The notes below the pieces were generated by a model. The model was not told where the DNA came from. It ran no database searches and was given only the letters and a program-made list of their open reading frames with translations. 64,000 nt of DNA from a virus. Its lineage: Duplodnaviria > Heunggongvirae > Uroviricota > Caudoviricetes. Each line of letters starts with the position of its first letter. Position 1 is the stretch's first letter. The position numbers were made by a program, and so were the translations under genes. Location: IMG/VR virus record IMGVR_UViG_3300042204_000022, one strand, 5' to 3'. Below are positions 22,348 to 46,145 of this stretch, piece by piece.

Positions 22348-22465
22348 AGCTCGTCCTTTCTGTAATTTACGATTGCGTATAATTGGTCGTAGGTGAATGG
22401 GAATTCTGTGAGAAAAGCCTCGCTCACAACTGTTTTTTGCATATAGCTTGTAACAAAGATACTCA

Positions 22466-24074: not shown

Positions 24075-24432
24075 CTCTCTTCGCTTTCATTAGAGTTATT
24101 CCATCTTTTGCATCTTGCAGTCTTTTTTCGGTGTATTCGCTTTTGTAAGAGCCTTTTTCATAGTCTGCGATGTCGCCATCAACCATATCTGACATCATGT
24201 CTATAACACTAGTCGCTTTTAGCTCTTCTTCTTTGACTTCGATCTCGACAATTTCAGCATCGAGATAAACCTCAGCACGTGACGGCCTATAGCTATAGCG
24301 GTCCATAAACTGACGTAGGTGATTTTTAAGGTGACCGATGTTAGCCCAAGTCTTACCGCCCTTAGTAAAGTCAGGGTCCATTCCACCAGAGGAGTAACGT
24401 CCATCTTTGTCTCTAATCCTATAGACTTTCAC
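24061..24432 (-). CDS. hypothetical protein
   Basis: ORF. Confidence 0.4.
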   Translation of the reverse strand: MKVYRIRDKDGRYSSGGMDPDFTKGGKTWANIGHLKNHLRQFMDRYSYRPSRAEVYLDAEIVEIEVKEEELKATSVIDMMSDMVDGDIADYEKGSYKSEYTEKRLQDAKDGITLMKAKRDEAR

Positions 24433-24901
24433 GTGCAGCCTTTTTCAGACCCCTAAATACGAATCCGCTTTCTACTTTTAGATTTCCGGGAATAATAATC
24501 TTCTCTTTTGTACCTACGTCGATACCAAGTGCTGTGTCTACGTGCTTTACAGTTACGTGACCATTGTAAAGTGGGAATGCTTCGAATACCTGACGCAGCT
24601 CCTCGTTGTCACCTACGAATGCTGCAAGAGCGGTGATAGAGTATGCGTCTACTTCGTTTACGCCTTCATCGATGTAATAATCTGAGTCAATCTCAGCACC
24701 GTCGAGGTAAATTGCGAGGTTCTGAAGTTGCATGGCGTTCTTCGCTTCAAGAACAATTACTGTGCGACGAAAATCGCTTAAGAAGTCTTCTTTAGAGTTG
24801 CCATTAAGTAACATTGCTGAGTGAACAGCTTGAGCAGCTGCTTTGCCGGGAGACATCTTTAGCTCGCCGTTCAAAACTACGTACATTATTGGATTTTTCA
24901 T
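24419..24901 (-). CDS. peptidyl-tRNA hydrolase, PTH2 family
   Basis: YVVLNGELKMSPGKAAAQAVHSA resembles PTH2 N-terminal signature. Confidence 0.6.
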   Translation of the reverse strand: MKNPIMYVVLNGELKMSPGKAAAQAVHSAMLLNGNSKEDFLSDFRRTVIVLEAKNAMQLQNLAIYLDGAEIDSDYYIDEGVNEVDAYSITALAAFVGDNEELRQVFEAFPLYNGHVTVKHVDTALGIDVGTKEKIIIPGNLKVESGFVFRGLKKAARESL

Positions 24902-25230
24902 TTTTGTGCCTCCATAAGATAGTCGTACAGCTCGCCAGCGTCATGAATCGCCAACCTTTTGGTGTTCGGGTCATCTGCATCGCCGAGATAAACAGCATAC
25001 GTCTCAGCATTCTTGCCACACTCAGGGCCGTCCCAGAACCACCAGCTGATGATTTCATCGTGGTCGAGCGTCTCAATTACCTTCTCTACGAGAGGAGTAC
25101 TGAACACAAGACTATGATTAAATCCGTCTTTTACAACATTATCCAGAGACTTACCAATTTCCCTGTCACGTTCTTCTTGTGCGATTAGTGCGTTGATGAT
25201 TTGTACGAACTGCTCTTTTGATATATTCAT
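24898..25230 (-). CDS. hypothetical protein
   Basis: ORF. Confidence 0.4.
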   Translation of the reverse strand: MNISKEQFVQIINALIAQEERDREIGKSLDNVVKDGFNHSLVFSTPLVEKVIETLDHDEIISWWFWDGPECGKNAETYAVYLGDADDPNTKRLAIHDAGELYDYLMEAQK

Positions 25231-25265
25231 GTACTAAATATAACAAAGCATAAGCAGAATGTCAA

Positions 25266-26180
25266 CTAAAATTCGTAACGAACATCACCCCTCTGTAGGA
25301 CGTTGATTCCATAGTAGTCTCTCAGGTGATTTGCTACACGAGGACGGTCATCAATCCAGAATAGGATGTTATACTTCCCGCGAATATGCTCTTCGATGAA
25401 CTCACCTTTAACGATAGCGTCGTTGCGGTTGTCGTTCTCTGCACGCATCACGAGCTTGTCGTATTCGATGTCGTTTTTCTCTAACCATGCCTCAGTTTCT
25501 GGGCGACATACTGCGTCACGTCCTGAGAAGATAAATAGCTCTACGTCATCTATGCCACGTTTGCCGTGTATAAACTGCACCCCGTCTAATAAGGCTGCAA
25601 CACCGAGGTTAATTTCGTCATTACCAACTTTATGCCATTCATAAGGCGAACGGTTTTTTGGACCGTTTGTGAGACTGCCGTCTAGGTCGCTTACTACCAA
25701 CCATTTGAGGCTTGGGTCGTAGCTAAGAAATGTTGGCAGCGTCTTAACGCTTTCATGAAACATTCTGCGGATAACTTGTTCGCCAACACTGTCTTCACGG
25801 TTCTTATCACGTTCAATCACCTCTGCGAGTGGTACATCTAAGAAACTTTCGATGACCACCTCAGCACCAAATTCTTTTGCGATATTTGTGATTCTGGTGA
25901 CGTGTTTTTGCACAAGGTTTGTGTCTGAAGAGACTACGCTTTTACCTTGTGAAAGTGCTTGCTGAATAAGACGGTCACGTTCTTTGATAACGATTGACTC
26001 ATCGCCACGTTTGTGACTGTACGCACCGTCCTTAAACAGGCGACCATCTTTGCGGATTTCATCTTTTTCTACACGTACACGATTCTCTTTATCTTCTGAT
26101 ACCCATTGACGGGCGAACGTAGTTTTACCAGAAGCCGGTAGACCCCTAGTAATTACTACGGTTAATTTACTATTCTTCAT
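25266..26180 (-). CDS. polynucleotide 5'-kinase / 3'-phosphatase (Pnkp, T4 PseT-like)
   Basis: N-terminal P-loop GLPASGKTTFA; C-terminal HAD phosphatase DLDGSL...FWIDDRP. Confidence 0.75.
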   Translation of the reverse strand: MKNSKLTVVITRGLPASGKTTFARQWVSEDKENRVRVEKDEIRKDGRLFKDGAYSHKRGDESIVIKERDRLIQQALSQGKSVVSSDTNLVQKHVTRITNIAKEFGAEVVIESFLDVPLAEVIERDKNREDSVGEQVIRRMFHESVKTLPTFLSYDPSLKWLVVSDLDGSLTNGPKNRSPYEWHKVGNDEINLGVAALLDGVQFIHGKRGIDDVELFIFSGRDAVCRPETEAWLEKNDIEYDKLVMRAENDNRNDAIVKGEFIEEHIRGKYNILFWIDDRPRVANHLRDYYGINVLQRGDVRYEF

Positions 26181-26412
26181 TTTGATTTTCTCCACGAAGG
26201 GCTACGAGTGTGGTGTCTCTTTTTCTAAGTATAGTATCTACGGTAACTCCGTAAGCGCCTTCAAGTACCTCTGATGCGAGGTTCATTCTTTTTTCTATTT
26301 CTGTAGCTTTTTCGCCAAGCTTTAGTATATGATCTACGATTCCTTCTGGACCCATAGATTCGAGTAGTTCAACTTCTGACAATCCGGGCAATGATTCTTG
26401 GCGTTCTATCAT
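26170..26412 (-). CDS. hypothetical protein
   Basis: ORF. Confidence 0.35.
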   Translation of the reverse strand: MIERQESLPGLSEVELLESMGPEGIVDHILKLGEKATEIEKRMNLASEVLEGAYGVTVDTILRKRDTTLVALRGENQNEE

Positions 26413-27680
26413 TCTACTTTACCTTCCTCTTCCATATCTAGTGCTTCTTCGTCCATCATCTTGCTTTCGTGAGCAAAAAATAGAGGACTCTTCAGCTTAG
26501 CAATATATGGGGCTAGACCTTCGATGCGAATACACACGCCTTCGTCACAAGGGCTTTCCTTGTCTAGCGGTACAGCATTAGCGTAACCACCATGTAGTGT
26601 ATCATGATAATTCGTATCTAACCACTCTTCAGGGTTAAAGTCTTGGTGCTTACCACGCCATAGTTCTGGCACGTGCTTCAAGCCACGATCGCGAGTCCAC
26701 TCTTTGAGCTGATCCCAGCTAAGGTCAGTCATAATACCCTGACCGTTGATCTGTGCGACACGGTAAACGTAGAAGTCGTTTGTCATGTGAGGCACACGGT
26801 AGGTATAGTTCTTCTGAATTGGTACACCATCTGGTGTCCATCCGATTAGCTCGCCATAAACGACGAAGTTTTCAGGAACGAGGTCGTCGTACTTCTTCGC
26901 TGCTTCAGTCCAGATGTCGTGTTCATAGAAGTGCATCTGACGTTCGTTATTCGCATCCTTAATAACACGGTTTGAACCGTACACGTGGTCGTATTCAGTT
27001 TTCTGCACACGTACACCAAGCTTAGATGCGACCTTCTCAACGACAGATAGTTTGCGTGCTACGGGAATGTTAGAGAAACGAAGCAGGGTACCGTGAAGCT
27101 TCTGAGTCACGATGATTTCTGTGTATGGCTTGAACGTATCGAGAACACGGTAGTACTGTGATGTGTCATAGTGACGAGGGAAGAGTTTTTCGTCTACACG
27201 AGTGAACACCTTGTGCTTGTTATTTTCGTGAGCTGGTGTTGATTTGCGCTTGACTTCATACTTCTTACAGATTTCGAAGCCATTCAATTCTTCAAATACG
27301 TCACCGACCTTAAGTTCGCTCAGGTCTACCTTAGTGTAGGCGAGAGATGAAAGTGGCATGAACAACGCATCAGAGCGGTTGCCGCGAAGCTTAATAGCCT
27401 TAACACGACGGTTGTCTTCGATGAATCCAGTCTTGTCTTTGTCTTCGTTAAACTCGTGATGACGAAACAGGTTGTTCTTAGCAGTGTACTCATCGCTAAG
27501 CTGCGTTCCCGCTACGAATACGACACCGACAGTGCCAATCTCAGTTTCCTTAGAAACTACCGCCTGCATACCCAGCAGTGGTGCACCAAGAAGATTGTCA
27601 CTGTTTTCAAGTGGGTTGAGAGCACTAATCTTTACGATCTGTGCTGCATAGTTTATGTTTTCAGGTTCTTTTAGTTTCAC
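26409..27680 (-). CDS. ATP-dependent RNA ligase (Rnl2-like motifs; N-terminal extension + C-terminal nucleotidyltransferase domain, DraRnl/Rnl5-like architecture)
   Basis: motif I TQKLHGT (KxHGT), motif III-like VYGELIGW, motif IV EGVCIRIEG, C-terminal K-rich; NTase domain located in C-terminal half. Confidence 0.65.
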   Translation of the reverse strand: MKLKEPENINYAAQIVKISALNPLENSDNLLGAPLLGMQAVVSKETEIGTVGVVFVAGTQLSDEYTAKNNLFRHHEFNEDKDKTGFIEDNRRVKAIKLRGNRSDALFMPLSSLAYTKVDLSELKVGDVFEELNGFEICKKYEVKRKSTPAHENNKHKVFTRVDEKLFPRHYDTSQYYRVLDTFKPYTEIIVTQKLHGTLLRFSNIPVARKLSVVEKVASKLGVRVQKTEYDHVYGSNRVIKDANNERQMHFYEHDIWTEAAKKYDDLVPENFVVYGELIGWTPDGVPIQKNYTYRVPHMTNDFYVYRVAQINGQGIMTDLSWDQLKEWTRDRGLKHVPELWRGKHQDFNPEEWLDTNYHDTLHGGYANAVPLDKESPCDEGVCIRIEGLAPYIAKLKSPLFFAHESKMMDEEALDMEEEGKVE

Positions 27681-28038
27681 TTTCTTTTTCCTTTTTGAAT
27701 AAATCGTTTAGCTCTGGTAAATTCTCCTCATAGAACATTAGTGCCATTGCGTTCCATGCTACTGCTGCTATGTGGTCTTCAGTTCTGTCGCCCTCTCTCC
27801 ATTGAATGAGGTGACGAAATAATGATGCGTAGGCACGAGAAAACGGTTGACCTTTCTTCCAGTTGTCGTCGCCGTATTTCTCTGCACCACGTGCATACAA
27901 GTCTGCGAGTCTGCGAAGCCCCTCTGTTGGGATTAGATCAAAGCGAGGCTTGCCATCTTGAACGTCTCTCACCATGCCAGTTGAAAAGCTCTGCCTCTTG
28001 CCAGAATCCTTTGTAATAAATTCTTTCTTACCGCTCAT
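27661..28038 (-). CDS. MazG-like / dNTP diphosphohydrolase N-terminal-domain-like protein
   Basis: RFDLIPTEGLRRLADLYARGAEKYGDDNWKKG; start moved to ATG 28038 (leaderless). Confidence 0.35.
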   Translation of the reverse strand: MSGKKEFITKDSGKRQSFSTGMVRDVQDGKPRFDLIPTEGLRRLADLYARGAEKYGDDNWKKGQPFSRAYASLFRHLIQWREGDRTEDHIAAVAWNAMALMFYEENLPELNDLFKKEKESETKRT

Positions 28039-28075
28039 GCTTTTATTATATCTGAGCAAAGTGCTTATGTCAACT
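28039..28075 (-). promoter_or_regulatory. sigma70-like promoter, leaderless start (TTGACA-N17-TATAAT-N6-ATG)
   Basis: minus-strand TTGACATAAGCACTTTGCTCAGATATAATAAAAGC-ATG. Confidence 0.6.
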
Positions 28076-28867
28076 AGAGACGTACCAAATTCCCTCAGAT
28101 TGATACGTGAACTTTACGACGATTGATCTATCTGTTGCGGGTATCTCAATTTCAAGATTCTGAAAGCTTGTGAGGTGGGTTACGTGAACTGACCAGTCAA
28201 TATAATTCTTAAACCCTTGCTGACGAAGAAACAGCCCCAAGTTAACATCGGGACCGAGCCCGTTACTTGAGAAGAACCTATGCTGGACATAGTAATCAGC
28301 CCTAATAAGAGCACAATAGAGACCACAAGCATCAATTTCATCTATTGTAGGGTCTTTTGCTTTACTTTCGAGTGAAGTGACGGCTTTCGGTTCAAATACA
28401 TCATTCGCACGCCACGCACCAACATAAAACGAACCCCACCTGCCAAGCTCGACACCAGTAATCATTCCTGCATCTGGTTTTGACTCAGCGATAGCAACGA
28501 GACGCTCTAGGGCGTTGGGGGGTAGAATACCGTCATCTTCAATGCTAAAAACCCAGCTCGGCTCATAATCTTCTGTCACGAGCTCTGGGGCTGGCGGCAG
28601 TATGTCTGCAATCTGGTTGTGTATGTTTGAGATGTTTATGCGACGCTCAGCGATGGTCGCACCGGGACCGCTATTTGTTGATTTGACGCAAAGCTTCTGC
28701 TCAAAATCTAGTTCGAGTATTTTGTTTCTTACAGTTACAAAGTCTTCATCAGAGCCATCAAATATGACTATGAGATTATTCGGTTTATGTGTTTGTTTTA
28801 ATAGGGATTCAATAACTCTATCTAGGTACTTCGTCCTCGACACTGGCAGTATTGTTGTTATCGTCAT
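28070..28867 (-). CDS. glycosyltransferase family 2-like (GT-A)
   Basis: ILPVSRTKYL...VIFDGSDED pattern. Confidence 0.45.
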   Translation of the reverse strand: MTITTILPVSRTKYLDRVIESLLKQTHKPNNLIVIFDGSDEDFVTVRNKILELDFEQKLCVKSTNSGPGATIAERRINISNIHNQIADILPPAPELVTEDYEPSWVFSIEDDGILPPNALERLVAIAESKPDAGMITGVELGRWGSFYVGAWRANDVFEPKAVTSLESKAKDPTIDEIDACGLYCALIRADYYVQHRFFSSNGLGPDVNLGLFLRQQGFKNYIDWSVHVTHLTSFQNLEIEIPATDRSIVVKFTYQSEGIWYVSS

Positions 28868-29519
28868 TTTTGTTTAATTCTATTTTGTTAAATTCCTTGC
28901 CATCGATAATCTCTAGCACGGTTTGATCGCCGATAGGCGTGTTGTCTTGATGTTCTGAGAATGTGTCTATGCACCAAACATTCTCTTGTGGGTTCCAGAT
29001 CGTCTCGCTTGGGTTGTGTCCGATCACCTGTGGACCTGACTTATAGGTAACATACCCGCCGTACTCTCTAGGGCGAGCCCAAATAGGGCTTGTGTCATTC
29101 CATAAACCAGCTACACTTTCATCGCCGTCCCATTCTTCAGTAACGCCAGCATGAGAGAATGTTACTCCATCTAGCTCAAGAATTGGCGGTAGAGATAGAA
29201 GCCATTGTTTGATTTTCTTATTTTCTGGTGCGTTAACAAGTTGGTAAGTCACCCCATTCCATCCACTTGAGCGACCTGCAATTTCTGGGTGAATGTAGGC
29301 GTAGTCATGGTTGCCAATAACAGCGAACACCTTTTTAGGATTAGAATCCATTAGCATCTTTAGTAGACGCCACGTTGCAAGAGATTCACCGGGAGTCGTG
29401 TTCCAGTTATCTGCGTAGTCCCCGCAAAAAACAACAGCATCGTAATCTTCTACGATCTTTTCTACTTTTTCAATCATCCATGACTTTGTGTGTACGTCAC
29501 CTACCGCAAGTATCTTCAT
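28818..29519 (-). CDS. calcineurin-like metallophosphoesterase
   Basis: GDVH...GDYAD...GNHD motifs. Confidence 0.65.
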   Translation of the reverse strand: MKILAVGDVHTKSWMIEKVEKIVEDYDAVVFCGDYADNWNTTPGESLATWRLLKMLMDSNPKKVFAVIGNHDYAYIHPEIAGRSSGWNGVTYQLVNAPENKKIKQWLLSLPPILELDGVTFSHAGVTEEWDGDESVAGLWNDTSPIWARPREYGGYVTYKSGPQVIGHNPSETIWNPQENVWCIDTFSEHQDNTPIGDQTVLEIIDGKEFNKIELNKNDDNNNTASVEDEVPR

Positions 29520-29526
29520 ATCTCTA

Positions 29527-30585
29527 TTATACCTCTAATTTCGCCAAAAGTAAATCCCACTTATGCTTAATTACTTCGTAAGAGTATTGGTCTTTTGCTA
29601 TTTTTCTTGCTGAATCCTTGTACCCGATTCTTAACTCGTCACCTAAGACAGCAAACTGAGTGATTCTACCCGCCAGAGCGGTGTGGTCTGCTGAGTAAAC
29701 ATCAATCATGGTTCTCGCCATAAACTCGGTCTTTTTTTCTGCTGGTACGAGCCAGTAGGGTGGCAAAATCTTATTATTAGGGTCAATGTCGGTCATAATG
29801 ACGGGCAAACCCGCTGCGAGTGCTTCATTCATCGGTAAGCACGCCCCAGCGTACCTGCGAGGTAGAATCATAGCGTCATACCAGCGGTAAAGCTCCCTCT
29901 CATCTGCTGGCTCTTCTCTGTCAATTCTCACCCTTGGGTCATCTGACTCAACTTCAGTTGTTTGCGTTTTAATAACAAGCTCAAAGTCTACCTCAGCAGG
30001 AATAAGTTTAACTGCTGCGAGTAGGTCTTGTGTACCGTTGCGATCTTCATACGTTTTACGGCCAGCGATATGTAGAAACCTAGGCTTACCAAATCTGTGC
30101 CTATTCTGCTGGTAGATGATGTCATACGCCTCTAGGTCTACTGGTGATTTTAGAATAGGTACTTCGCCGAAAATCGTCTCAAGCTTATCGTTGTTCCACT
30201 CAGAGTGATTTGCGAGAATATCTGGTCTAGGTAGAAGTGGACGCTGAAGCCAGTCGCAGAACTCATAATTAGACACCAAAATAGTCTTAACACCAAGCTG
30301 TTTTGCACGAGCAGTCAGTTCATACCCAGCCGTGTAGTCGATTTCGCACGTAACGAGAACATCTATGCCTTCAAGTACCTGATCGAGATTTCTCAAATTG
30401 ATGAAACCGTGTACGCTGTATCTATTGTCTGTGAGACCATCTAATAGCTCTGGATGCTGTTCGTTGCCATTAACCGAACTGAAGTCTATGACGATCAACT
30501 TGTCAGCGTTCAACATCTTAGCGATGTTTCTTGTCTGCACCCCTAAACCAGTAAGGTCTTGACGAACAATAACTCCTATTTTCAT
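29527..30585 (-). CDS. GT-B-fold glycosyltransferase (GT4-like)
   Basis: C-terminal EALAAGLPVIMTD nucleotide-sugar binding motif. Confidence 0.5.
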   Translation of the reverse strand: MKIGVIVRQDLTGLGVQTRNIAKMLNADKLIVIDFSSVNGNEQHPELLDGLTDNRYSVHGFINLRNLDQVLEGIDVLVTCEIDYTAGYELTARAKQLGVKTILVSNYEFCDWLQRPLLPRPDILANHSEWNNDKLETIFGEVPILKSPVDLEAYDIIYQQNRHRFGKPRFLHIAGRKTYEDRNGTQDLLAAVKLIPAEVDFELVIKTQTTEVESDDPRVRIDREEPADERELYRWYDAMILPRRYAGACLPMNEALAAGLPVIMTDIDPNNKILPPYWLVPAEKKTEFMARTMIDVYSADHTALAGRITQFAVLGDELRIGYKDSARKIAKDQYSYEVIKHKWDLLLAKLEV

Positions 30586-31205
30586 GCTAGCCCCCTTCTT
30601 TTTCTCTCTATGTCCAGATCGTAGCCCGCATTATTTTTGTAATTCTTTGTACGCTCTTCGTGTGGGTGCCAATGATGGATAAAAGAGTCTGGGGTGTCCC
30701 TAATCATCGTGTGGTTCAGTTTATACGGTTCGACGAACATGTTATCGTCACCGCCGTATGATTTCCACTCAACCCACTTGTGATCTTCCCATTGCTGTTT
30801 TGTGACCGCTACTTGCCCGAATGAATGAACGCCCCAATCGCCCGTTTTGCGATCTTCGTTCTCCATCCACATTATCGGTGCATAAACCCACCCTTCGGGT
30901 ACTAACCTAACAATTTTATCGATAACTTCTTGCACCACGACCACATCAGCATCTAAGAAGAAGAGAATATCACCCTTTGCGCTCTCTGCTGCAACATTTT
31001 TCGCTTTACCTATTGACCAGTCGCCTTCCCATCTAGCTACGGTGATCTCAAATTCATACGCATGAGCTAGCGCCTCCCAGTTAATGTCGTCTGAGTAGTT
31101 GTCCCCGATAACAACCTCAAAGTCGCCCTTAACACGTCTTAGCGAATCTAGACAACGAATTAAGTTGGCTGCACGGTTCTTTAGTGGGATGCAAATTGAA
31201 ATCAT
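30582..31205 (-). CDS. glycosyltransferase family 2
   Basis: ICIPLKNR...EVVIGDNYSDD...ILFFLDADV (DxD). Confidence 0.7.
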   Translation of the reverse strand: MISICIPLKNRAANLIRCLDSLRRVKGDFEVVIGDNYSDDINWEALAHAYEFEITVARWEGDWSIGKAKNVAAESAKGDILFFLDADVVVVQEVIDKIVRLVPEGWVYAPIMWMENEDRKTGDWGVHSFGQVAVTKQQWEDHKWVEWKSYGGDDNMFVEPYKLNHTMIRDTPDSFIHHWHPHEERTKNYKNNAGYDLDIERKRRGLA

Positions 31206-31912
31206 TTGTGGTTCTCTAGGTAGATGTTACAGCCTCTTTCTGGTACGCCGAACGTGGAGAAGCTGAAGTCACTTAAGAATGGTTTAATAATCGATACGAA
31301 GTCTTCTACATTGTTGTGTTCGTCAAACTCAATCGCATACCTTCTCGCTCTGAGAATTGAAGCTTCACTCGCACCAGTAATCATTGGTAGCTCTGAGCCC
31401 TCGATGTCGCACTTAACGAAGTCAATTTTGTTTTCACTCACTTCTTCCAACAACTCATCGTAGGTGATAATCTCAATCTCTTGAGTATTGACAGCACCCG
31501 TAAGGCGGGAGCTACCTGCGTTGTTCGTGATGCCCGAATAGCCACTAAAGTCAGATACACCCTTTGGTATAACCGTTACCTTAGAGCCTCTTTCGAAAAG
31601 CTGTTTGTTTGCGAGAAGGTTTTTGCGAAGTATCTCAATGTTATTCTCTTCTGGCTCAACCGCATAAACGTGAACCGCTTTTCCTGCTTCGTGAGCGACG
31701 CTCAGAACGAATAGGGTGAAGACACCGATGTTCGCGCCAATATCAAGCACGACAGGATTTTTCTGCTCTAGAAAGTTGCCATCGAACCTATAAATGTTGA
31801 GGTTGAATATTTCTCTAACCACGGCATAGTCATCGTCGCTGTCGGGACGAGTGCTGATTATTATGTCGGTGTATAGACCGGGAATTGTATAATCTCTATA
31901 CTTCATTTTCAA
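31202..31912 (-). CDS. FkbM-family methyltransferase
   Basis: VLDIGANIGVFTL...VYAVEPEENNIEIL. Confidence 0.6.
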   Translation of the reverse strand: MKMKYRDYTIPGLYTDIIISTRPDSDDDYAVVREIFNLNIYRFDGNFLEQKNPVVLDIGANIGVFTLFVLSVAHEAGKAVHVYAVEPEENNIEILRKNLLANKQLFERGSKVTVIPKGVSDFSGYSGITNNAGSSRLTGAVNTQEIEIITYDELLEEVSENKIDFVKCDIEGSELPMITGASEASILRARRYAIEFDEHNNVEDFVSIIKPFLSDFSFSTFGVPERGCNIYLENHK

Positions 31913-32849
31913 ATACCGTGTTTAGAATTGTTTGCCAGCGGGTAACGTAGGTATGGTCACGCTTCGTTCTCAGGAAACCTGCATGACGAATCGCCTCACG
32001 TTCTTCGTCGTGGGTAAGATAATAGTCAATTTTCTCTTTAAGGTCGTCAAGATTTCCGTGCTCGTAAAGAACAATTTCTTTACCATCTTCGTACTGGTCT
32101 TCAACTCCTTTAATGTTGGGGAAAATCTGAAATGCGCCACGCCCAGGCTGCTCAAAGAGACGGTCGCTAAAGTAATATGGGTACTCGAAGTTGAGATTAA
32201 GCGTGTCACCAACCGCAATCTTCGCATTGCGATAAATCTGATTAAGCGGTAGACCTCTAATCTGACCAACATCTCCGTCGTTGCCGATATGAATAAAACG
32301 CTGACCGTATGTCTTCTTTAGAAAATCAACCAACTGTGGGCGGTACGGGTACTCTGGGTGGTACTTTCTACTTCCTGTGAATACGATGTCGTATCTGACA
32401 CGTTGCTGTGGTAGCATCTGCACTTCTTCGCCGAATACACCAGCCGGTAGATAAACTCCCTTAGTGTCGGTGTTTTCATTCATCCAGTCAGCCATTAACT
32501 TGTCTACTGTGAAGAAATAATGAAGACTCTTGTAATAGTCGTCGTTCGTAATATCTTTTTCACGATCAAGACCGAACCATAGGTCGAGGTGATAAGTGAT
32601 GAAGGGAATACCCTTATCTTTGAGTGCATCTGAAACCATTTGCCACGTCATAAAGCCGGGGGTGTTCCACCCGTGCGTGTGAATCGCAACAACGAGATCG
32701 CTTCTAAGACCGTGCTCTAGTAGTTGTTCCTTCGTCGTGTGCGATTCTTGAAGCCTTACTACCTCATGCCCCATTGAAGATAGGCTACGGGCGTGGTGAG
32801 ACTCACTGGTAAAATCGACAGAAAAATTGCCTAATATAACTATCTTCAT
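31896..32849 (-). CDS. CgeB-like / GT1-like glycosyltransferase
   Basis: C-terminal GRGAF...EAIRHAGF...TW pattern; weak. Confidence 0.4.
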   Translation of the reverse strand: MKIVILGNFSVDFTSESHHARSLSSMGHEVVRLQESHTTKEQLLEHGLRSDLVVAIHTHGWNTPGFMTWQMVSDALKDKGIPFITYHLDLWFGLDREKDITNDDYYKSLHYFFTVDKLMADWMNENTDTKGVYLPAGVFGEEVQMLPQQRVRYDIVFTGSRKYHPEYPYRPQLVDFLKKTYGQRFIHIGNDGDVGQIRGLPLNQIYRNAKIAVGDTLNLNFEYPYYFSDRLFEQPGRGAFQIFPNIKGVEDQYEDGKEIVLYEHGNLDDLKEKIDYYLTHDEEREAIRHAGFLRTKRDHTYVTRWQTILNTVFENEV

Positions 32850-33089
32850 CTACTTCTCGTCTACGGGAACAACCCTCGCCGTTCTCGCCTCTGTATCAAA
32901 TTCAACAGTGATATATTCTCCGTACTCCCACCATTCGCCTGCGACATCAAGAGCCTTCTCTACACGTAACTCACGAACCGCTTCTTGTTCGTCTTCAGCG
33001 AGACCGCTATTCTTTAGCTCTTCGTCTACGGCTTCTTCTACTGCGTCTTGAAGAACGTCTGTGTCTTTAATAAATACTTTTACTTTCAT
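32850..33089 (-). CDS. hypothetical acidic protein
   Basis: ORF. Confidence 0.4.
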   Translation of the reverse strand: MKVKVFIKDTDVLQDAVEEAVDEELKNSGLAEDEQEAVRELRVEKALDVAGEWWEYGEYITVEFDTEARTARVVPVDEK

Positions 33090-33349
33090 GCTAACTCCTT
33101 TGGCTTTTGGGTGCTCGTGCCTTTAATACCGCATTGAACTGCGAGCGACATTTGGTCTACTGGTGATGAATAATCGTTTGGTCCCGATTTAAGAATTGCT
33201 TGGCGAAACTGAGTGATGCCCTGACGATTCCAGTTATTGTACTGGTTGTAGGATACGTACTGACCACCGCCGACGCTAACGACGACCATTTCTGGGTACA
33301 AGACGTAGGTTAGTTTTCCCCTATTGATGATTTTTGGTTTTTCTTTCAT
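33086..33349 (-). CDS. hypothetical protein
   Basis: ORF. Confidence 0.4.
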   Translation of the reverse strand: MKEKPKIINRGKLTYVLYPEMVVVSVGGGQYVSYNQYNNWNRQGITQFRQAILKSGPNDYSSPVDQMSLAVQCGIKGTSTQKPKELA

Positions 33350-33369
33350 ACACTCAGATTAGCATAACC

Positions 33370-34182
33370 TTAAACATTTACAAACTCTGGTTTTACGTCT
33401 CCCTGACTCTCTGTTATCGCCTTGCGATCACTAAAGTAGCCATAACACTCGTTACACTGGTACTGGCGGTAGCGAGAAGTGTTTGTCGTGCGATACGCCT
33501 TAACCCTGAAACTATATGAACCACAGCGAGGGCAGGAATCCCACTCTCCCGAAATACGAGATAAACTTGGGTGCGAGTGCATAAACGAACGCATCTTGAG
33601 GTAGATTCCCGTCGTGACCCTTACGTCTTGCTCGTTATAAATCTTGAGCTTCTTGTAGGCTTTAGGATCGTTATTGATGAAACAATCCTCCCACAAATCT
33701 CCGACCTTGAATTTTGTCTTTTTGCCGACACCCAATTCTTCGCCCAAGTTGTCTAGGGTGTTGTTGTTGAACCTGAAGTAACGCTTAGCGATCTTCTTGG
33801 TGTCGATTGACTTAGTAGGTGGAATCGGCTCTAGACCGTTATGGATAAAGAACGTATTCGCCATCTTGATGTCGAAATTGTCTGAGTTCTGACCGAGAAT
33901 AATGTCTGCGTCAGAAAGAACCTTGTGTAGTTCGAGTGCGAGCAGTTTGTCGTTGTGCGGGTCAACCTTAAAGGTGTCCATGTCAGCGAGACTAAGCGAG
34001 TGAATCTTCTTCTGCCCTACCACCTGCCACGCAAAGCTCATGAGCACTTGGCGATCTTTTACTTTTAATATTCCCGTCTCCCATGTTGGCGGGTAGAAAT
34101 AGCCTAACGCCGGGCTGACCTCTAGGTCAAAGCTAATGATGCAAGGCTTTTTGATTGCTTGGATTGGTTCGTCATGTTGCAA
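33370..34182 (-). CDS. RNase H-fold 3'-5' exonuclease-like protein with C-terminal zinc ribbon
   Basis: ISFDLE (DxE), QNSDNFDI, YNEQDV acidic motifs; CPRCG...CNEC. Confidence 0.4.
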   Translation of the reverse strand: MQHDEPIQAIKKPCIISFDLEVSPALGYFYPPTWETGILKVKDRQVLMSFAWQVVGQKKIHSLSLADMDTFKVDPHNDKLLALELHKVLSDADIILGQNSDNFDIKMANTFFIHNGLEPIPPTKSIDTKKIAKRYFRFNNNTLDNLGEELGVGKKTKFKVGDLWEDCFINNDPKAYKKLKIYNEQDVRVTTGIYLKMRSFMHSHPSLSRISGEWDSCPRCGSYSFRVKAYRTTNTSRYRQYQCNECYGYFSDRKAITESQGDVKPEFVNV

Positions 34183-34236
34183 GATTTTGTTTCTCCATAT
34201 CTGTTCCTCCTATAATAACCATAAGCGTTTTGAATG

Positions 34237-35133
34237 TCAAGACTTTTTCCTAATTTTCACACTTTCCTTGAGGATTTTAGGGGCGACGTGCTTCCACTTG
34301 ACTGTATGATGAACCCTGAACGCATCCGTATTCACCCTATCGCCCCTGTTATGAAGAACTCCGATCTTAACACCAGAAGGGTGGCTCATAACCGAGTAGA
34401 AGGATTTAACATACGTGCCAAACTTTTTGTACATATCGGTGTTACCGCTATTGTTACTTTGGGTTTGCTTCTGGTTGATTGCGATGAATCCTGTCGTCAA
34501 GAAGAGCACGCCTCTACTGGATAGGGTGGTGTATGCAACAACATCGTCGTTCATTGTGCCCGAAAAGTCGAATGGTCTCTCGGTATCGATAATCCATGAA
34601 TTCATGCCTTTTCTTCTATACTGATCGACCGCCATTTTTGATTGACCGCCCCCAATATAGTCGCCTGACTGAGCCATGCAGATGGACTGAAGTCTTGGTG
34701 TTGATTTTAGGTAATCAAGCATTATTTCGAACACTTTGTCAAGTGCATTATTGTCTTCAGCGAGCATTTTTGAAGAATATTCGATCTGAGGATTCATTCT
34801 CCACCTAACTGAGTCGTAATCGTCTTCAAACTCAGCGAAATACCTGTAGCCAAGACCCTGTGCAATGTCAATACACGCTTGACGAGCGTAAACGATTGAT
34901 TTATGAAAGTTGAAGTTGTCCATAGAGTCGGTTAACCCCATGTAGGTCTTCTTGTTGAATACGACAATCTTGTCTTCGCCGAAAATCTCTTTATAGCGGT
35001 CTATAGTGGGGTCTAAATCATCAAGTACGATGTACCAATCCCCCGTATAGCCAAACCTTTTAAGAGTATTGACAGTAAATACGTTATCTGGTCTGCCATG
35101 AGACAAAATTAGAACACAAAAATTACTCTTCAC
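34237..35133 (-). CDS. putative nucleotide-sugar transferase (GT-A-like)
   Basis: ILSHGRPDN...LDDLD pattern; weak. Confidence 0.3.
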   Translation of the reverse strand: MKSNFCVLILSHGRPDNVFTVNTLKRFGYTGDWYIVLDDLDPTIDRYKEIFGEDKIVVFNKKTYMGLTDSMDNFNFHKSIVYARQACIDIAQGLGYRYFAEFEDDYDSVRWRMNPQIEYSSKMLAEDNNALDKVFEIMLDYLKSTPRLQSICMAQSGDYIGGGQSKMAVDQYRRKGMNSWIIDTERPFDFSGTMNDDVVAYTTLSSRGVLFLTTGFIAINQKQTQSNNSGNTDMYKKFGTYVKSFYSVMSHPSGVKIGVLHNRGDRVNTDAFRVHHTVKWKHVAPKILKESVKIRKKS

Positions 35134-35467
35134 TCTTGCGAATCTCCATCAGACGCTTATTCATCTGAACGAAGCCATTTGCGATCGCATCATCAAAGTC
35201 GATAATCACTAAACCTGATTGTTCGAACAATTCCTGCACTTCAGCAGGAGAATTTGCGTAATATTCAGCGACTTTGTCGTAATTGAACTTGTAATGACGA
35301 GTCGCAGCAGCACGCAAGAAAGTTTTCACGCCATTCGGTGCCACGCTATCGTTAATTTTGCTTATTAAGTCATCAAATACAGTTGTGTCAACTAATTCTG
35401 AGAGTTTTGGCTTTTCTCCCTTAATTTCATAGATGGGGGCCTTAATTTTTGATGTGTACTCACTCAT
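35123..35467 (-). CDS. hypothetical protein
   Basis: ORF. Confidence 0.4.
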   Translation of the reverse strand: MSEYTSKIKAPIYEIKGEKPKLSELVDTTVFDDLISKINDSVAPNGVKTFLRAAATRHYKFNYDKVAEYYANSPAEVQELFEQSGLVIIDFDDAIANGFVQMNKRLMEIRKSEE

Positions 35468-35867
35468 TTCTGATTTTTAGAACCTCTTTTGTTGTTGACC
35501 ATTTGTGTTTTCTTGGTAAATATTGTAAACGTTCGTTTCCGATTATTTTTTTGCCTTCTTCGAATCCTGTTTCTTTGTACTCGTCTGACAAAAAATACAC
35601 GTCGTAGTCTAGTAATTTTAGTAGTTCTAACAGGTTTTCCTCACTTTCACAAGGGATTACCTCATCGACACACTCTAGCGCCATCAATTTCAGGTATCTT
35701 TCTTCGATCGGCTCTGTATAGAGCTTATGACTTCTAATACTTTGGTCTCTGACTATGATGCAAATCAATTTTGTACAATGTTTTTTTGCTAATTTCAATG
35801 CTTCGATGTGACCGACGTGTAGAAGGTTGAACCCACCGGGCATTATTCCGATTTTTTCAGTATTCAT
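35460..35867 (-). CDS. cytidylyltransferase-like nucleotidyltransferase (HxGH)
   Basis: GGFNLLHVGHIEAL motif as in glycerol-3-P cytidylyltransferase/PPAT. Confidence 0.65.
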   Translation of the reverse strand: MNTEKIGIMPGGFNLLHVGHIEALKLAKKHCTKLICIIVRDQSIRSHKLYTEPIEERYLKLMALECVDEVIPCESEENLLELLKLLDYDVYFLSDEYKETGFEEGKKIIGNERLQYLPRKHKWSTTKEVLKIRNE

Positions 35868-36282
35868 ATTTCTATTATACAGGAATGGTTTTCTAAAGCG
35901 TAAGAAAAATGGTATTTCAGAGAGAGGGCAAGGAGACTCCTCCCCCTACCCCTCCAAGAGATAGGGAGAGAGAATGACTTATTTCGTCGGTCGGTTAGTC
36001 AACTGGCGGTTCCCCTCGGATTTCTCCTATTATACCCGCCCAACAAACTCGCCGTCTACGTCTACCGCACCTTGACCATTTCTGCCCACGCTAGTACTAA
36101 CGAACCATTTTGGTAATTAACAGCATTGGGGACTTGCACCCCTCTTATGACCCCCGTCATATAGCTTGTTGCTCATTCGCTCGTCTGAAAGACTTGCTCT
36201 TCTAAGTTTAGCACGTAAAGCTTATGCTTTGCAAGACCATAAGCGGGACAAACTGTCCAATTTATTATCATGCTAATGTCTA

Positions 36283-36331: not shown

Positions 36332-36796
36332 ATGTTTATAGAACTCAAAAAAGCTGTCGTTAACACAAACCTTATAGAATCATTCACTGAGCAGTACGTG
36401 TGGTTTACGTCAAGCAGAGAAGCGATGGCTATTGATACTGATGACTACCAAAAACTTTACGACGCTCTAGTGCCTCGTACTCGCAAGACAAAAGATGTTG
36501 TACCAAAAAATGAATTAAACATTTTATTCGACGAACTACACACGCTCACTGGCGGCAAGGGTAAAGCGGTCTTCTCGCTGAACCGTGAAAAGAAACTGAA
36601 CGATCTTATTACCAAGCACAGGTTGACTCCTGAAATACTCAAGGTCGCAGCCGAGAACATTGGTAAAGACGCTTTCTTGCAGGGCGATAATGATTCTAAA
36701 AAACGCTACGGCGATATTGACTATTTGCTTCGCCCAGATAAGGCCGCTAAATGGTCTGAAGTGGTAGTGCAAAGAAAGAGGGGAATGTTTCAGTAA
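36332..36796 (+). CDS. hypothetical protein (possibly replication-associated)
   Basis: ORF immediately upstream of dnaB-like gene. Confidence 0.5.
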   Translation: MFIELKKAVVNTNLIESFTEQYVWFTSSREAMAIDTDDYQKLYDALVPRTRKTKDVVPKNELNILFDELHTLTGGKGKAVFSLNREKKLNDLITKHRLTPEILKVAAENIGKDAFLQGDNDSKKRYGDIDYLLRPDKAAKWSEVVVQRKRGMFQ

Positions 36797-38109
36797 TGGA
36801 TGATAACGCCGTATATGACATCGATGCAGAAATGTCGGTGCTTGGTTCACTGATGATTGATGGCGAGAGAATCGCCAAAGTAATGGAAATTTTGACTCAC
36901 GAGGATTTCTACGAAAGACGTAATGAACTCGTATTTCGTGGTATGGAGTGGCTCGCTAAAAAGGGAATTGAGATTGACATCATCACCCTATCTGATGCGC
37001 TGAAGCAGGCGAAAGTTCTCGACGAGATCGGAGGCAGTGCGTATCTTGCAGAAGTCACAAATTATGTTCCTACATCTTTGCATGTGTTAAACTATGCAAA
37101 GATAGTAGCAGACCATTCTGCGAAAAGAAAAATAAACAAAATGGCAGTAGAAATGTCAGAGATGTCAACCAACGGTGCGAGCCTCGAAGAGACTCTTGCT
37201 AAGGTTAAAGAGAAAATCTCTGAAGTTAATAACTTGGGCGGTAAAGAGAATAAATACCAAGTTGCTTCGATGCTTGATTATATTGACGAAGCCCAAGAGA
37301 GGTATGATAACTGGGGTAAGATGCAGGGATTATCAACTGGTTTTCCTAGTATCGACAAACTCACTCTCGGTCTTGTTGGCGGTGAGCTGATTATTGTCGC
37401 AGGTCAGACATCTCGTGGTAAAACACTATTGTCTATGAATATCGCTAATAACATAGCAAAGACAGGTAAGACGGTTCTTTTTGTCACGCTCGAAATGACA
37501 CACGCCGAGCTTACGTCAAGGTATATGTTTGTGAACGGTGGTGCTGGCAGCGAGAGTTTTGGCGGGGTTGCAGCAAACACGCTATTTCAGGCGAATGACG
37601 AACTCGACTGGAAAGACATCGATGGTCTCATCAAGAACGCAAAAGAAGAGCTGAACGTTGACCTTGTAGTGATTGACCACCTTCACTATTTCACTCGTGA
37701 ACTTGCAAACGTCGCTGAAGATTTAGGTCGTATCACGAAAGAGTTCAAGAAGAACGCCATTCGCTATAACATTCCTATTATCCTCATTTCGCACGTGAGA
37801 AAGATGGCTAAAGACGAGCAGCTGTCAGGTGAATCGCTTCGTGGTTCATCGCTTATCGCACAGGACGCAGACATCGTGCTTCTCGTTGACCGTGACCCAG
37901 AAACTAATGCAATGGGTGTGATGGTTGATAAGAACCGTAACCGTGGAAAGCTCAGTGATCGTACTAAAGACTGGCAGGGCAAGGACGAGCGTGAGATTAA
38001 CACCATCTTCCTTGAATTCAACAACACGAAGTTGCACGACCCAGAAGATGTACCGAAGCCTCTTCAGCAGTTATTTCCCGGCTCGGTCTCAGTCCCTCTA
38101 AACGAATAG
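36796..38109 (+). CDS. dnaB: DnaB-type replicative helicase
   Basis: N-terminal DnaB domain (AEMSVLGSLMID), Walker A GQTSRGKT, ISHVRK. Confidence 0.85.
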   Translation: MDDNAVYDIDAEMSVLGSLMIDGERIAKVMEILTHEDFYERRNELVFRGMEWLAKKGIEIDIITLSDALKQAKVLDEIGGSAYLAEVTNYVPTSLHVLNYAKIVADHSAKRKINKMAVEMSEMSTNGASLEETLAKVKEKISEVNNLGGKENKYQVASMLDYIDEAQERYDNWGKMQGLSTGFPSIDKLTLGLVGGELIIVAGQTSRGKTLLSMNIANNIAKTGKTVLFVTLEMTHAELTSRYMFVNGGAGSESFGGVAANTLFQANDELDWKDIDGLIKNAKEELNVDLVVIDHLHYFTRELANVAEDLGRITKEFKKNAIRYNIPIILISHVRKMAKDEQLSGESLRGSSLIAQDADIVLLVDRDPETNAMGVMVDKNRNRGKLSDRTKDWQGKDEREINTIFLEFNNTKLHDPEDVPKPLQQLFPGSVSVPLNE

Positions 38110-45702: not shown

Positions 45703-45705
45703 TTA

Positions 45706-45793: not shown

Positions 45794-45797
45794 ATCT

Positions 45798-45871: not shown

Positions 45872-45878
45872 ATAATTA

Positions 45879-45953: not shown

Positions 45954-45961
45954 ATATTGTT

Positions 45962-46050: not shown

Positions 46051-46056
46051 TTATTT

Positions 46057-46139: not shown

Positions 46140-46145
46140 ATATTC

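Follow-up and report, generated by a model that had tools for sequence, protein, structure and literature searches.

A putative DNA-glycosylation cassette and a separable glycan operon adjoin in the genome of an uncultured tailed phage

The 64,000-nucleotide stretch of viral DNA analyzed here (hereafter the window; IMG/VR record IMGVR_UViG_3300042204_000022, Caudoviricetes) contains at positions 28070-35867 a block of sugar-related genes that a first-pass annotation, made from the sequence alone, had described as one sugar-modification island. With high confidence, this block consists of two separable modules, A (34237-35867) and B (28070-33349). Module A encodes a glycosyltransferase of the TAGT family, a 114-residue protein resembling the C-terminal region of ParB and a small nucleotidyltransferase, and probably acts on DNA. 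Module B is an autonomous operon with glycosyltransferase and methyltransferase genes. As an explanation of the whole block we tentatively favor a DNA-glycosylation cassette lying beside an independent glycan operon. The apparent single island is the juxtaposition of that cassette with a very widespread phage operon predicted to make methylated glycans, and the split separates three genes relevant to DNA modification from six relevant to protein glycosylation.

The boundaries and the minus strand given by the first-pass annotation were correct, as 28070-35867 is an unbroken run of open reading frames (ORFs). Its count of nine genes was too low: there are 12 contiguous ORFs with junctions of -50 to +54 nucleotides (overlaps measure 4-50), and the largest gap, the 54 nucleotides between the TAGT and exonuclease genes, is the only sizeable break. 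Five of the encoded enzymes are glycosyltransferases (four to five had been predicted; Pfam gives five, one of which had not been recognized as a TAGT protein). The others are a methyltransferase (FkbM), a nucleotidyltransferase (HxGH), a metallophosphoesterase and a DEDDy exonuclease that is intact, and the three small ORFs (114, 87 and 79 residues) belong to no Pfam family. The proposal that such a gene set could activate, transfer and O-methylate a sugar is borne out by these assignments. A host-derived cargo operon, which would have refuted a phage function, finds no support, given that the GC (guanine plus cytosine) content of the block (0.44-0.45) equals that of the rest of the window and that the nearest homologues lie on viral contigs. 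A chance pattern is excluded by the recurrence of the gene order in the diverged loci L001, L004, L005, L006, L101, L175, L176, L095-L100 and L187.

Comparison of these loci reveals where the block comes apart. Four relatives, L001, L004, L005 and L006, whose TAGT proteins are 54-83% identical to that of the window, share the complete order: divergent from a DnaB gene run the genes for the nucleotidyltransferase (not called in L005), a 112-119-residue protein, TAGT, the exonuclease, a protein of about 87 residues and GT1_2 (a Glyco_trans_1_2 protein), followed by a variable slot, a second transferase of the GT-B fold (hereafter GT-B), the phosphoesterase, a GT2-like transferase, in some cases a MazG-like protein, RNA ligase and PNKP. 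The variable slot holds FkbM and GT2 genes in the window, FkbM, an FkbM-like gene and a 494-residue ORF in L001, PIG-L and Methyltransf_23 genes in place of FkbM in L004, and FkbM with ORFs of 154 and 522 residues in L005. The close relative L101 (RNA ligase 84% and DnaB 64% identical) lacks all three module A genes and keeps everything from the exonuclease to PNKP, with DnaB and a 154-residue ORF on one side and, on the other, genes for the exonuclease, the 87-residue protein, GT1_2, FkbM, GT-B, the metallophosphoesterase, the GT2-like transferase, RNA ligase and PNKP. The part from GT1_2 to the GT2-like gene also occurs without TAGT in L175, L176, L095-L100 and L187. L016 (terminase 58% identical) presents the reverse case, with a homologue of the 114-residue protein and TAGT beside the terminase gene and no other glycosyltransferase gene within 10 kb. 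Neither TAGT nor its partner was found in any of 85 viral GT1_2 loci (L101 and 84 others), 75 of which carry a GT-B homologue, and in a census with all window ORFs only GT1_2 and GT-B recur across the wider family. The TAGT cassette can thus exist apart from the other four glycosyltransferases, and they from it, contrary to the idea of a single island.

Modules A and B also appear to be separately promoted (Table 1). One sigma-70-like candidate lies upstream of module A, within the 464 nucleotides that separate the nucleotidyltransferase gene from the divergent 154-residue and DnaB genes. A second lies in or at the TAGT/exonuclease gap, where it could start a transcription unit that apparently comprises the exonuclease gene and module B. 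A perfect consensus match stands at the far end of the island. A further near-perfect consensus (11/12, 17-nucleotide spacer) occurs on the minus strand at 25237-25265, at another module boundary of the minus-strand arm. Judged by their sequences, this one and those at 28045-28073 and 34212-34240, which have the same spacer length, suggest that the phage relies on the host primary sigma factor for the units concerned.

The glycosyltransferase of module A scored 99.2 bits against PF20691 (cut-off 27.5) over residues 7-227, which makes it a member of the TAGT family, and PF20691 was present in all 120 listed homologues. Its active-site motif (R14, D38-D39-L-D41, E103-D104-D105-Y106) matches the R...DDD...EDY/F pattern of phage DNA glycosyltransferases of the GT-A fold, with R14, D41, D104 and D105 invariant in a 25-sequence alignment. 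The AlphaFold2 model (predicted local distance difference test, pLDDT, 80) has a GT-A fold and matches GT-A structures, and its matches in BFVD were TAGT-annotated viral proteins (1e-24 to 1e-9) and a T4-like homologue, the beta-glucosyl-HMC-alpha-glucosyltransferase (HMC, hydroxymethylcytosine) of Klebsiella phage PKO111 (2.2e-7, template modeling score 0.61). The T2/T6 enzyme of that name belongs to the same Pfam family and adds a second glucose onto glucosyl-hydroxymethylcytosine in DNA (PMC13216743, PMC13390438), showing that TAGT enzymes can accept a DNA-linked sugar and not only a base. Phage GT-A enzymes encoded next to C5-methyltransferase and TET genes, which put mono- to trisaccharides on 5-hydroxymethylcytosine (5hmC), share the R...DDD...EDY/F motif (Pyle et al., bioRxiv 10.1101/2023.12.21.572611). 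The T-even pathway differs in that hydroxymethylcytosine is made before replication (gp42, gp56, gp1) and an alpha-glucosyltransferase places the first sugar, none of these being present here, and in sequence, where the resemblance is too slight for tblastn to detect at 1e-5. We know of no ParB-like partner for the T-even enzyme. From its sequence, TAGT is predicted to glycosylate a DNA base or a DNA-linked sugar, and it is the block's only direct link to DNA. DNA hypermodification, one of the functions originally proposed, is the best reading for module A, and not for the block as one island.

The 114-residue protein is the near-constant companion of TAGT. Its gene overlaps the TAGT gene by 11 nucleotides and the nucleotidyltransferase gene by 8, and the protein is 48% identical to residues 134-240 of a 243-residue ParB-like protein of the Lactobacillus phage phi jlb1, itself encoded upstream of a TAGT gene. 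Of 94 TAGT loci, 93 encode a homologue of this domain just upstream of TAGT, the lone exception being a locus cut at its end; the homologue takes the form of either a stand-alone protein (112-156 residues) or the C-terminal part of a ParB-like protein (240-340 residues). A clear conserved motif is seen in the family alignment, and the short stand-alone forms constitute a large family. ParB-like proteins without a DNA-binding domain activate phage thymine dioxygenases on double-stranded DNA, a function for which they need their C-terminal domain (O'Toole et al., PNAS 2026, PMC13229309). The resemblance to that system lies in a ParB-derived protein encoded beside a DNA-modifying enzyme and tied to it; the differences are that the enzyme here is a glycosyltransferase rather than a dioxygenase and that the 114-residue protein corresponds to the C-terminal region only, so that the N-terminal ParB/Srx nucleotide-binding domain is absent from it. 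About 5 kb past the left end of the window, near the portal gene, the flanking segment L181 encodes at 3528-4166 a 212-residue protein with weak ParB-N similarity (motif LLDGHQRKH; PHROG 723 at 3e-5; PHROG 620 positions 12-90), for which BLASTP against the phi jlb1 ParB-like protein was not significant. By its sequence it could complement the 114-residue partner, the two being halves of a split ParB-like protein.

The third gene of module A encodes a HIGH-motif nucleotidyltransferase that is predicted from sequence to make a nucleoside diphosphate (NDP)-activated donor. It was assigned at the superfamily level (PF01467, TIGR00125), with rfaE_dom_II (heptose-1-phosphate adenylyltransferase) as its best NCBIfam match (2.7e-16; 59.7 bits against an equivalog cut-off of 181.5) and TagD (glycerol-3-phosphate cytidylyltransferase) at 1.6e-12 (47.6 bits against 165.4), that is, at about a third of either cut-off. 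Ethanolamine-phosphate and glycerol-3-phosphate cytidylyltransferases are among its PDB matches. Homologues adjoin TAGT in the unrelated PolA-type phages L011-L015 and L055, and three gene orders occur: after TAGT, before the partner, or between the two. As the order shifts while the adjacency is kept, a functional link to TAGT is indicated, most simply donor synthesis, and the recurrent coupling points to a non-standard sugar donor. A precedent is the set of a cytidylyltransferase-like enzyme, a HAD/APH kinase-phosphatase and a GT-B enzyme that yields heptosyl-5-methylcytosine on DNA (bioRxiv 10.1101/2023.12.21.572611); no kinase/HAD partner for the nucleotidyltransferase is present here. The ParB-C-like/TAGT pair also occurs with quite different companions in an unrelated PolIII-alpha-type phage (L007, ENA ERZ27299036 k141_90894, 8765-12900), where a radical-SAM (S-adenosylmethionine) enzyme is encoded upstream of it and a 271-residue ORF and a PAPS-reductase-like enzyme follow downstream.

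Family membership, basic charge, a partner derived from a DNA-clamp family and the replication and packaging contexts of the pair are together the reasons why we consider a DNA target for module A probable. The opposite possibility is that the ParB-linked TAGT has no DNA target and glycosylates a protein or another acceptor, such as the ParB-like partner or a packaging or virion protein, with module B extending or paralleling this activity so that the entire island serves virion glycosylation. Complete small phage genomes have the ParB-like/TAGT pair but no enzyme creating an O-acceptor on DNA, which would fit this scheme, as would the neighbors of the pair, the terminase large subunit being the most frequent neighbor cluster (39 of about 90 loci examined) and the small-subunit and portal clusters also common. 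However, every characterized PF20691 member acts on DNA, TAGT is basic whereas all module B enzymes are acidic (isoelectric point, pI, 4.6-5.7), and the obligatory partner comes from a family shown to assist DNA-base modification. Moreover, in larger phages the pair lies among replication genes, namely PolA, clamp and dUTPase (by inspection, L014), and DnaB here. We therefore regard the absence of a DNA target as improbable.

Several observations weigh against a DNA-glycosylation cassette beside an independent operon, and the most serious is the lack of a recognizable supply of hydroxymethylated bases. The searches covered about 96% of the approximately 88 kb genome (about 3 kb unseen), that is, the window and its flanking segments L181 and L182. 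A Pfam scan of all listed window ORFs of at least 160 residues detected no Thymidylat_synt (PF00303), TET_JBP (PF12851) or DNA_methylase (PF00145), and no such enzyme appeared in PHROG searches of several ORFs or is recorded in L181 and L182. No hydroxymethylating enzyme was present within 10 kb on either side of TAGT in five Pfam-annotated relative loci. Escherichia coli ThyA gave no tblastn matches in 179 loci, a search that very divergent hydroxymethylases could escape. The genes found most often beside the ParB-like/TAGT pair are those for terminase, portal and DnaB (assigned by inspection) and not one for a conserved unknown protein. The complete 38 kb genome of phi jlb1, which has both the ParB-like and TAGT genes, contains no annotated dioxygenase, thymidylate synthase or methyltransferase, and no hidden ORF was found in the unannotated 1.4 kb upstream of its ParB-like gene. 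A hidden dioxygenase was also sought by phmmer with the products of 22466-23395, 2300-3175 and 44613-45461 against the PDB, with no match at the low sensitivity of that comparison. With no hydroxymethylase, TET/JBP or C5-methyltransferase found, the known acceptor of the TAGT family is missing, and the TAGT of the ParB-linked subfamily may act on something other than a hydroxymethyl base.

Further points count on the same side. The 114-residue protein lacks the ParB nucleotide-binding domain needed in the published system; the adjacency of A and B is kept in five diverged lineages, which fits a functional link as well; module B lies in the replication and repair arm and not with the structural genes; and the substrates assigned to either module (donor sugar, DNA acceptor, acceptor of module B) are inferred. 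The promoter scan as a whole was not enriched over shuffled sequences (18 found against 19.8 expected), so the boundary promoters are to be read as suggestions only.

The missing acceptor is both the main weakness of the DNA reading and its most interesting point. Divergent enzymes of the 5mYOX class can escape Pfam: thousands of contigs were retrieved by 5mYOX profiles without Pfam TET/JBP annotation (O'Toole et al., PMC13229309), and about 65% of glycosyltransferase contigs have no neighboring 5mYOX or thymidylate synthase gene (Pyle et al., bioRxiv 10.1101/2023.12.21.572611). Three options present themselves, namely a ParB-derived partner working with host-supplied components only, a hydroxylase too divergent to recognize, or another acceptor. 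In an extreme version of the last, the ParB-C/TAGT pair would glycosylate canonical or host-modified DNA lacking any hydroxymethyl base, at an exocyclic amine, a terminus or a phosphate, from an unusual donor that the nucleotidyltransferase would provide, and the four other glycosyltransferases and FkbM would extend the product into an O-methylated oligosaccharide. This is an unlikely scenario; if true, such an oligosaccharide would be the most elaborate DNA-borne glycan yet seen. Interest would be high for either outcome, a sugar on DNA without a supply of 5hmC or 5-hydroxymethyluracil (5hmU), or a methylated oligosaccharide on DNA from the full block.

Turning to module B, its core consists of two retaining transferases. 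The GT1_2 model (pLDDT 93) shows a full GT-B fold belonging to the retaining GT4 type, with the methylmannose-polysaccharide mannosyltransferase 7qsg as its top PDB match (5.5e-12), followed by MshA, PimA, PglA and BshA; T4 beta-glucosyltransferase is not among the top 50 fold matches, a result that is uninformative on the acceptor. At least 250 GT1_2 relatives exist in IMG/VR, 80 of them listed at 56-68% identity, and a large protein collection holds 1,539 (E <= 1e-10). In isolated phages the only homologues are 25-28% identical and come from Streptomyces phages; in one of these, Dryad, a distant GT1_2 homologue and a methyltransferase gene stand at the end of the structural/lysis (late) operon. 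In the wider family the operon runs GT1_2, FkbM, a weakly GT47-like protein (below the Pfam cut-off), a 252-residue protein and GT-B, surrounded by epimerase-like, GT25-like and carbamoyltransferase-like genes (all by inspection) and by GlcNAc-transferase and Stealth-like (below cut-off) genes; an FkbM gene (cluster c4) follows GT1_2 in 53 of 73 loci. A 67%-identical GT1_2 homologue (L187/P0266) carries the NCBI name 'Candidatus Saccharimonas sp.' as a metagenome-assembled genome, its 76 kb contig being clearly a phage relative (DnaB, PNKP, CHAP, module B); the name hints at a Saccharibacteria (TM7) host, or at mis-binning. A 116-residue ORF within the second tRNA array (55866-56216, minus strand) has homologues in 13 of 73 otherwise unrelated GT1_2 loci and is the only window ORF besides GT1_2 and GT-B to occur in more than two loci of the wider family.

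The remaining enzymes of module B are less constant. FkbM is predicted by its sequence to be a sugar O-methyltransferase. The GT2 of the variable slot had no homologue in the 179 loci and is unique to this genome among those examined, and the GT2-like transferase at the end of the block is 51-59% identical in relatives. The metallophosphoesterase (PHROG 246, NinI-like Ser/Thr phosphatase, 4.4e-11; NCBIfam ApaH-like, 5e-9) could be a protein phosphatase or an NDP/NDP-sugar hydrolase, and the 50-nucleotide overlap of its gene with the next GT2 gene is kept in relatives. A homologue of the 87-residue protein is encoded directly upstream of GT1_2 in 13 of 14 relatives. The exonuclease has intact DxE, NxxxFD and YxxxD motifs (FDLE18, NSDNFD99, YNEQD182) and a zinc ribbon (CPRC217, CNEC243); it is present without TAGT in L101, L175 and L176 and absent from L095-L100 and L187, which keep module B. 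For this reason we take it to be a replication gene that shares the module B transcript, encoding a proofreading-type subunit as the first gene of the unit. It is probably not a sugar enzyme, a part in sugar chemistry being rejected on account of its PHROG 403 family and this distribution.

How the two modules would work can be outlined as follows. Starting from a sugar phosphate (or polyol phosphate) of the host, the nucleotidyltransferase would form an NDP-activated donor, which TAGT would move onto phage DNA after replication. The 114-residue protein would be the obligatory partner of TAGT, presumably as an adaptor holding or positioning it on DNA. Module B would be a horizontally mobile phage operon of soluble acidic enzymes, its core of two GT4-like GT-B transferases being joined in this clade by two inverting GT2 enzymes, FkbM in the variable slot and the NinI/ApaH-like phosphoesterase. 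It would build a short O-methylated oligosaccharide in the cytoplasm for an acceptor that does not depend on TAGT. Both modules are located in the replication/RNA-repair arm of the genome.

For the acceptor of module B, a phage protein is our tentative first choice, and virion glycosylation remains a live option for this larger module. Virion proteins of the actinophages Che8, Corndog and Myrna and of chloroviruses are glycosylated by virus-encoded soluble glycosyltransferases, and A064R of PBCV-1 joins two rhamnosyltransferase domains to an O-methyltransferase domain. These analogies, together with the late-operon arrangement in Dryad, are what favor a virion protein: there as here, soluble cytoplasmic transferases and a sugar O-methyltransferase act with no membrane machinery, and the genes may lie outside the structural module. 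The case differs in that it is known from genes alone, in that the Streptomyces phage homologue is so distant, and in that module B sits in the replication/repair arm beside a DNA glycosyltransferase cassette. Extension of a DNA-linked sugar comes second and is rather doubtful; it is favored by the fact that module B has long stayed next to module A, by the replication context and by known cases of secondary glycosyltransferases acting on DNA glycans. Some other acceptor altogether is just as doubtful. A similar mechanism, rather than membership, is offered by mycobacterial methylmannose-polysaccharide synthesis (7qsg), in which a soluble GT4 enzyme alternates with O-methylation in the cytoplasm; GT1_2 is only 14% identical to that enzyme, and the scores of many other GT4 enzymes come within two orders of magnitude of its own.

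The strongest challenge to two independent modules is that the whole block forms one DNA-hypermodification pathway, in which TAGT would place the first sugar on a modified pyrimidine, the four other transferases would extend it and FkbM would O-methylate the result, so that the DNA would bear a methylated oligosaccharide of unusual size, able to block restriction as well as modification-dependent nucleases. The conserved adjacency and order of A and B in five lineages agree with it, and so do the DnaB and proofreading exonuclease genes on one side of the block and the MazG-like dNTPase (deoxynucleoside triphosphatase) gene on the other. Phage clusters in which a primary DNA glycosyltransferase is joined by secondary enzymes of lipopolysaccharide (LPS) or teichoic type make di- and trisaccharides on 5hmC, O-methyltransferases, epimerases and kinases are known in 5mYOX neighborhoods, and the variable slot (FkbM, GT2, PIG-L, extra ORFs) resembles arms-race diversification. 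Against these stand the occurrence of module B without TAGT in L101, L095-L100, L175, L176, L187 and 73 further viral loci, the opposite charges of TAGT and the module B enzymes, the want of any special similarity of GT1_2 to T4 alpha- or beta-glucosyltransferase, and the absence of a detectable hydroxymethylating enzyme from the genome. An ArdA anti-restriction gene is present, which indicates that the phage does not rely on DNA masking alone. A single pathway is thus possible and, in our view, doubtful.

Remodeling of a host envelope polymer (teichoic acid, capsule or an LPS-like glycan) for superinfection exclusion had also been proposed for the island. The nucleotidyltransferase does resemble TagD and RfaE, envelope glycan synthesis typically employs the GT2 and GT4 families, and an integrase gene in the genome makes lysogenic conversion conceivable. 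On the other hand, none of the 12 block proteins has a membrane-spanning segment (the top 19-residue hydropathy, 2.08, corresponds to the SAM-binding strand of FkbM), and Pfam detected no flippase, polymerase, polyprenyl-phosphate transferase or TagB/TagF-type glycerophosphotransferase in the block. With the TagD score far below its cut-off and the block inside lytic replication and repair operons away from the integrase, this function is highly improbable. We give equally little weight to the notion that module B belongs functionally to the RNA-repair/tRNA arm, either modifying RNA (phage tRNAs) or making a small-molecule glycoside. It derives from the constant position of module B between replication genes and those for RNA ligase and PNKP, then PTH2, RlaP and the CCA-adding enzyme, from the 23 tRNA genes, and from the MshA, BshA and tetrahydrobiopterin glucosyltransferase structures among the fold neighbors of GT1_2. 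Apart from these fold neighbors it is an argument from adjacency, and the GT1_2/GT-B core occurs without any RNA-repair gene in 71 of 73 loci. To our knowledge, multi-glycosyltransferase decoration of bacterial or phage tRNA is without precedent.

Phage DNA glycosylation is a major means of escape from restriction and CRISPR (clustered regularly interspaced short palindromic repeats) systems and a source of DNA-labeling enzymes, and the pathways described so far all start from 5hmC, 5hmU or 5-hydroxycytosine made by recognizable enzymes. The present block resembles the described TAGT clusters (Burke et al. 2021; Pyle et al., bioRxiv 10.1101/2023.12.21.572611) in its PF20691-type GT-A enzyme with the R...DDD...EDY motif, its accessory secondary glycosyltransferases, a cytidylyltransferase-like sugar activator as in contig 53 (the heptosyl-5-methylcytosine cluster), nearby ParB-like genes and the replication/packaging position. 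Enzymes that could form donors or extend glycans are close to TAGT, with the nucleotidyltransferase adjacent and four glycosyltransferases plus FkbM within 6 kb. Unlike those clusters, it has no C5-methyltransferase, 5mYOX (TET/JBP) or thymidylate-synthase-like hydroxymethylase in the portion of the genome searched; its five glycosyltransferases and O-methyltransferase exceed any reconstituted cluster; four of the transferases belong to a module that circulates without TAGT; and the nucleotidyltransferase stands without a kinase/HAD partner. As DNA sugar-hypermodification clusters, TAGT enzymes, ParB-like helpers and cytidylyltransferase-assisted donors have all been described, this is not a new kind of system. 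New are the near-obligate pairing of a TAGT subfamily with a ParB C-terminal domain, reduced here to a 114-residue stand-alone protein, the recurrent coupling of this subfamily to a small nucleotidyltransferase, and the presence of the pair in genomes without a recognizable hydroxymethylating enzyme, juxtaposed with a widespread uncharacterized methyl-glycan operon. A subfamily tied almost one-to-one to a ParB-derived domain, in complete genomes without a route to the acceptor, implies that a hidden hydroxylase or a new acceptor awaits discovery.

Table 1. Features of the block 28070-35867 and its borders (window coordinates; E-values as given by each search; promoter scores are matches to the 12 consensus positions).
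Feature	Position	Strand	Evidence	Placement
HIGH-motif nucleotidyltransferase, 135 residues	35460-35867	-	CTP_transf_like (PF01467) 6.5e-13; H17-V-G-H20, W-S-T-T 123-126	module A
TAGT partner, 114 residues, ParB-C-terminal-like	35123-35467	-	no Pfam family; PHROG 620 positions 149-216 of 217	module A
TAGT-family GT-A glycosyltransferase, 298 residues, pI 9.0	34237-35133	-	PF20691 3.9e-28	module A
DEDDy 3'-5' exonuclease with C-terminal zinc ribbon, 270 residues, pI 8.7	33370-34182	-	PHROG 403 'DNA polymerase exonuclease subunit' 4e-59; RNase_H_2 1.8e-5	
Conserved basic protein, 87 residues, pI 9.6	33086-33349	-	no Pfam/PHROG match	module B
Acidic ORF, 79 residues, poorly conserved filler	32850-33089	-	found in 2 of 14 relatives	
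GT1_2, GT4-like retaining GT-B, Glyco_trans_1_2 ('CgeB-like'), 317 residues	31896-32849	-	Pfam 1e-24	module B core
FkbM-family SAM methyltransferase	31202-31912	-	Pfam 1.8e-18; NCBIfam fkbM_fam 1.1e-19; D57-I-G-A-N-I-G	variable slot
GT2 (GT-A), 207 residues	30582-31205	-	Pfam 6.9e-19; D85-A-D87	variable slot
GT4-type GT-B (Glyco_trans_1_4), 352 residues	29527-30585	-	Pfam 1.2e-10	module B core
Metallophosphoesterase, lambda NinI/ApaH type	28818-29519	-	Pfam Metallophos 2.6e-11; GDVH7, GDYAD33, GNHD69	module B, this clade only
GT2-like GT-A, 265 residues	28070-28867	-	Glycos_transf_2 2.4e-9; Glyco_tranf_2_3 1.3e-8; E110-D111-D112	module B, this clade only
MazG/MazZ-like dNTP diphosphohydrolase	27661-28059	-	PF18909 1.5e-22	neighbor, outside the island proper
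Sigma-70-like promoter candidate, TAGACG-18-TATAAT	36029-36058	-	10/12, consensus match only	upstream of module A
Sigma-70-like promoter candidate, TTGACA-17-TATTAT	34212-34240	-	11/12	TAGT/exonuclease gap; candidate start of module B transcription unit
Perfect sigma-70 consensus, TTGACA-17-TATAAT	28045-28073	-	12/12	island end; start of MazG-like/RNA-repair unit

Immediately downstream of the block follow genes for the MazG/MazZ-like dNTPase, RNA ligase, PNKP, PTH2, RlaP and the CCA-adding enzyme. The slot after the GT2-like gene is occupied in relatives by a dGTP_diPhyd_N gene (L006), a DUF6378 gene (L001) or a MazG homologue (L175), with no MazG-like homologue there in the other relatives, such as L004, L095-L100 and L101. 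A MazG-like pyrophosphatase and a 5'-nucleotidase had been cited in support of nucleotide-pool editing. Both genes exist, the second as a HAD-type phosphatase (13128-13748, minus strand) whose NT5C match is below the cut-off (8e-5; 23.0 bits against 24.8); it better matches PHROG 420 (unknown function, 4e-16) and the polynucleotide-kinase phosphatase family PHROG 415 (3.6e-9) and may belong with the RNA-repair genes rather than with editing of the deoxynucleoside monophosphate pool. Pool editing itself is not upheld, as the window and the flanking segments examined yielded no hydroxymethylase, TET/JBP enzyme or C5-methyltransferase. A Z-genome (2-aminoadenine) pathway, considered because PF18909 is of MazZ type, was discarded for want of PurZ: no scanned ORF matched Adenylsucc_synt, and the ORFs of PurZ size (352, 357 and 373 residues) gave no match, a PDDEXK match and a CCA-adding-enzyme match, respectively.

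Window positions 1-11011 are 100% identical to the JGI metagenome contig 3300042205 Ga0451583_000305, and the right-end genes of the window map to that contig as well, in circularly permuted order, from which a phage genome of about 88 kb (88,145 bp) is deduced. The rest of it (about 24 kb) encodes the portal protein, a 767-residue protein, a tape measure protein, C1q-like fibers and small ORFs. The window also encodes a terminase (10853-12289), DnaB, RusA, lysins of the CHAP and amidase types and an integrase. A DNA polymerase gene was recognized neither in the window nor in its flanks, despite the presence of DnaB, RusA, the proofreading-type exonuclease and a PD-(D/E)XK/HIRAN nuclease. The block had no megablast match among 50,697 phage records, and the terminase is only about 30% identical to those of isolated phages.

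The DnaB of the window (36796-38109, 437 residues) is intein-free, whereas that of L095-L100, L187 and L188 (832 residues) is interrupted by an intein (PT-HINT, Intein_splicing). The genome carries its 23 tRNA genes in two arrays (45628-47979 and 55154-56564) and an unusually complete RNA-repair and tRNA-maintenance set, comprising RNA ligase, PNKP, PTH2, RlaP, the CCA-adding enzyme, HAD_SAK_2, a Ro/TROVE-like vWA protein (DUF2828/DUF7788) and an Rv2179c-like exoribonuclease, at 20572-27680, 40059-41501, 49492-49995 and 58127-58549. A plus-strand block at 191-9522 encodes the ArdA protein (1721-2248), an FtsK/SpoIIIE-like ATPase (7510-8217), a weakly MucR/Ros-like protein below the Pfam cut-off (8343-8801) and a SprT-like protease (8801-9256). 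It lies between the terminase gene and the portal gene, the latter outside the window, which is an odd site for early anti-defense genes or genes like those of integrative and conjugative elements.

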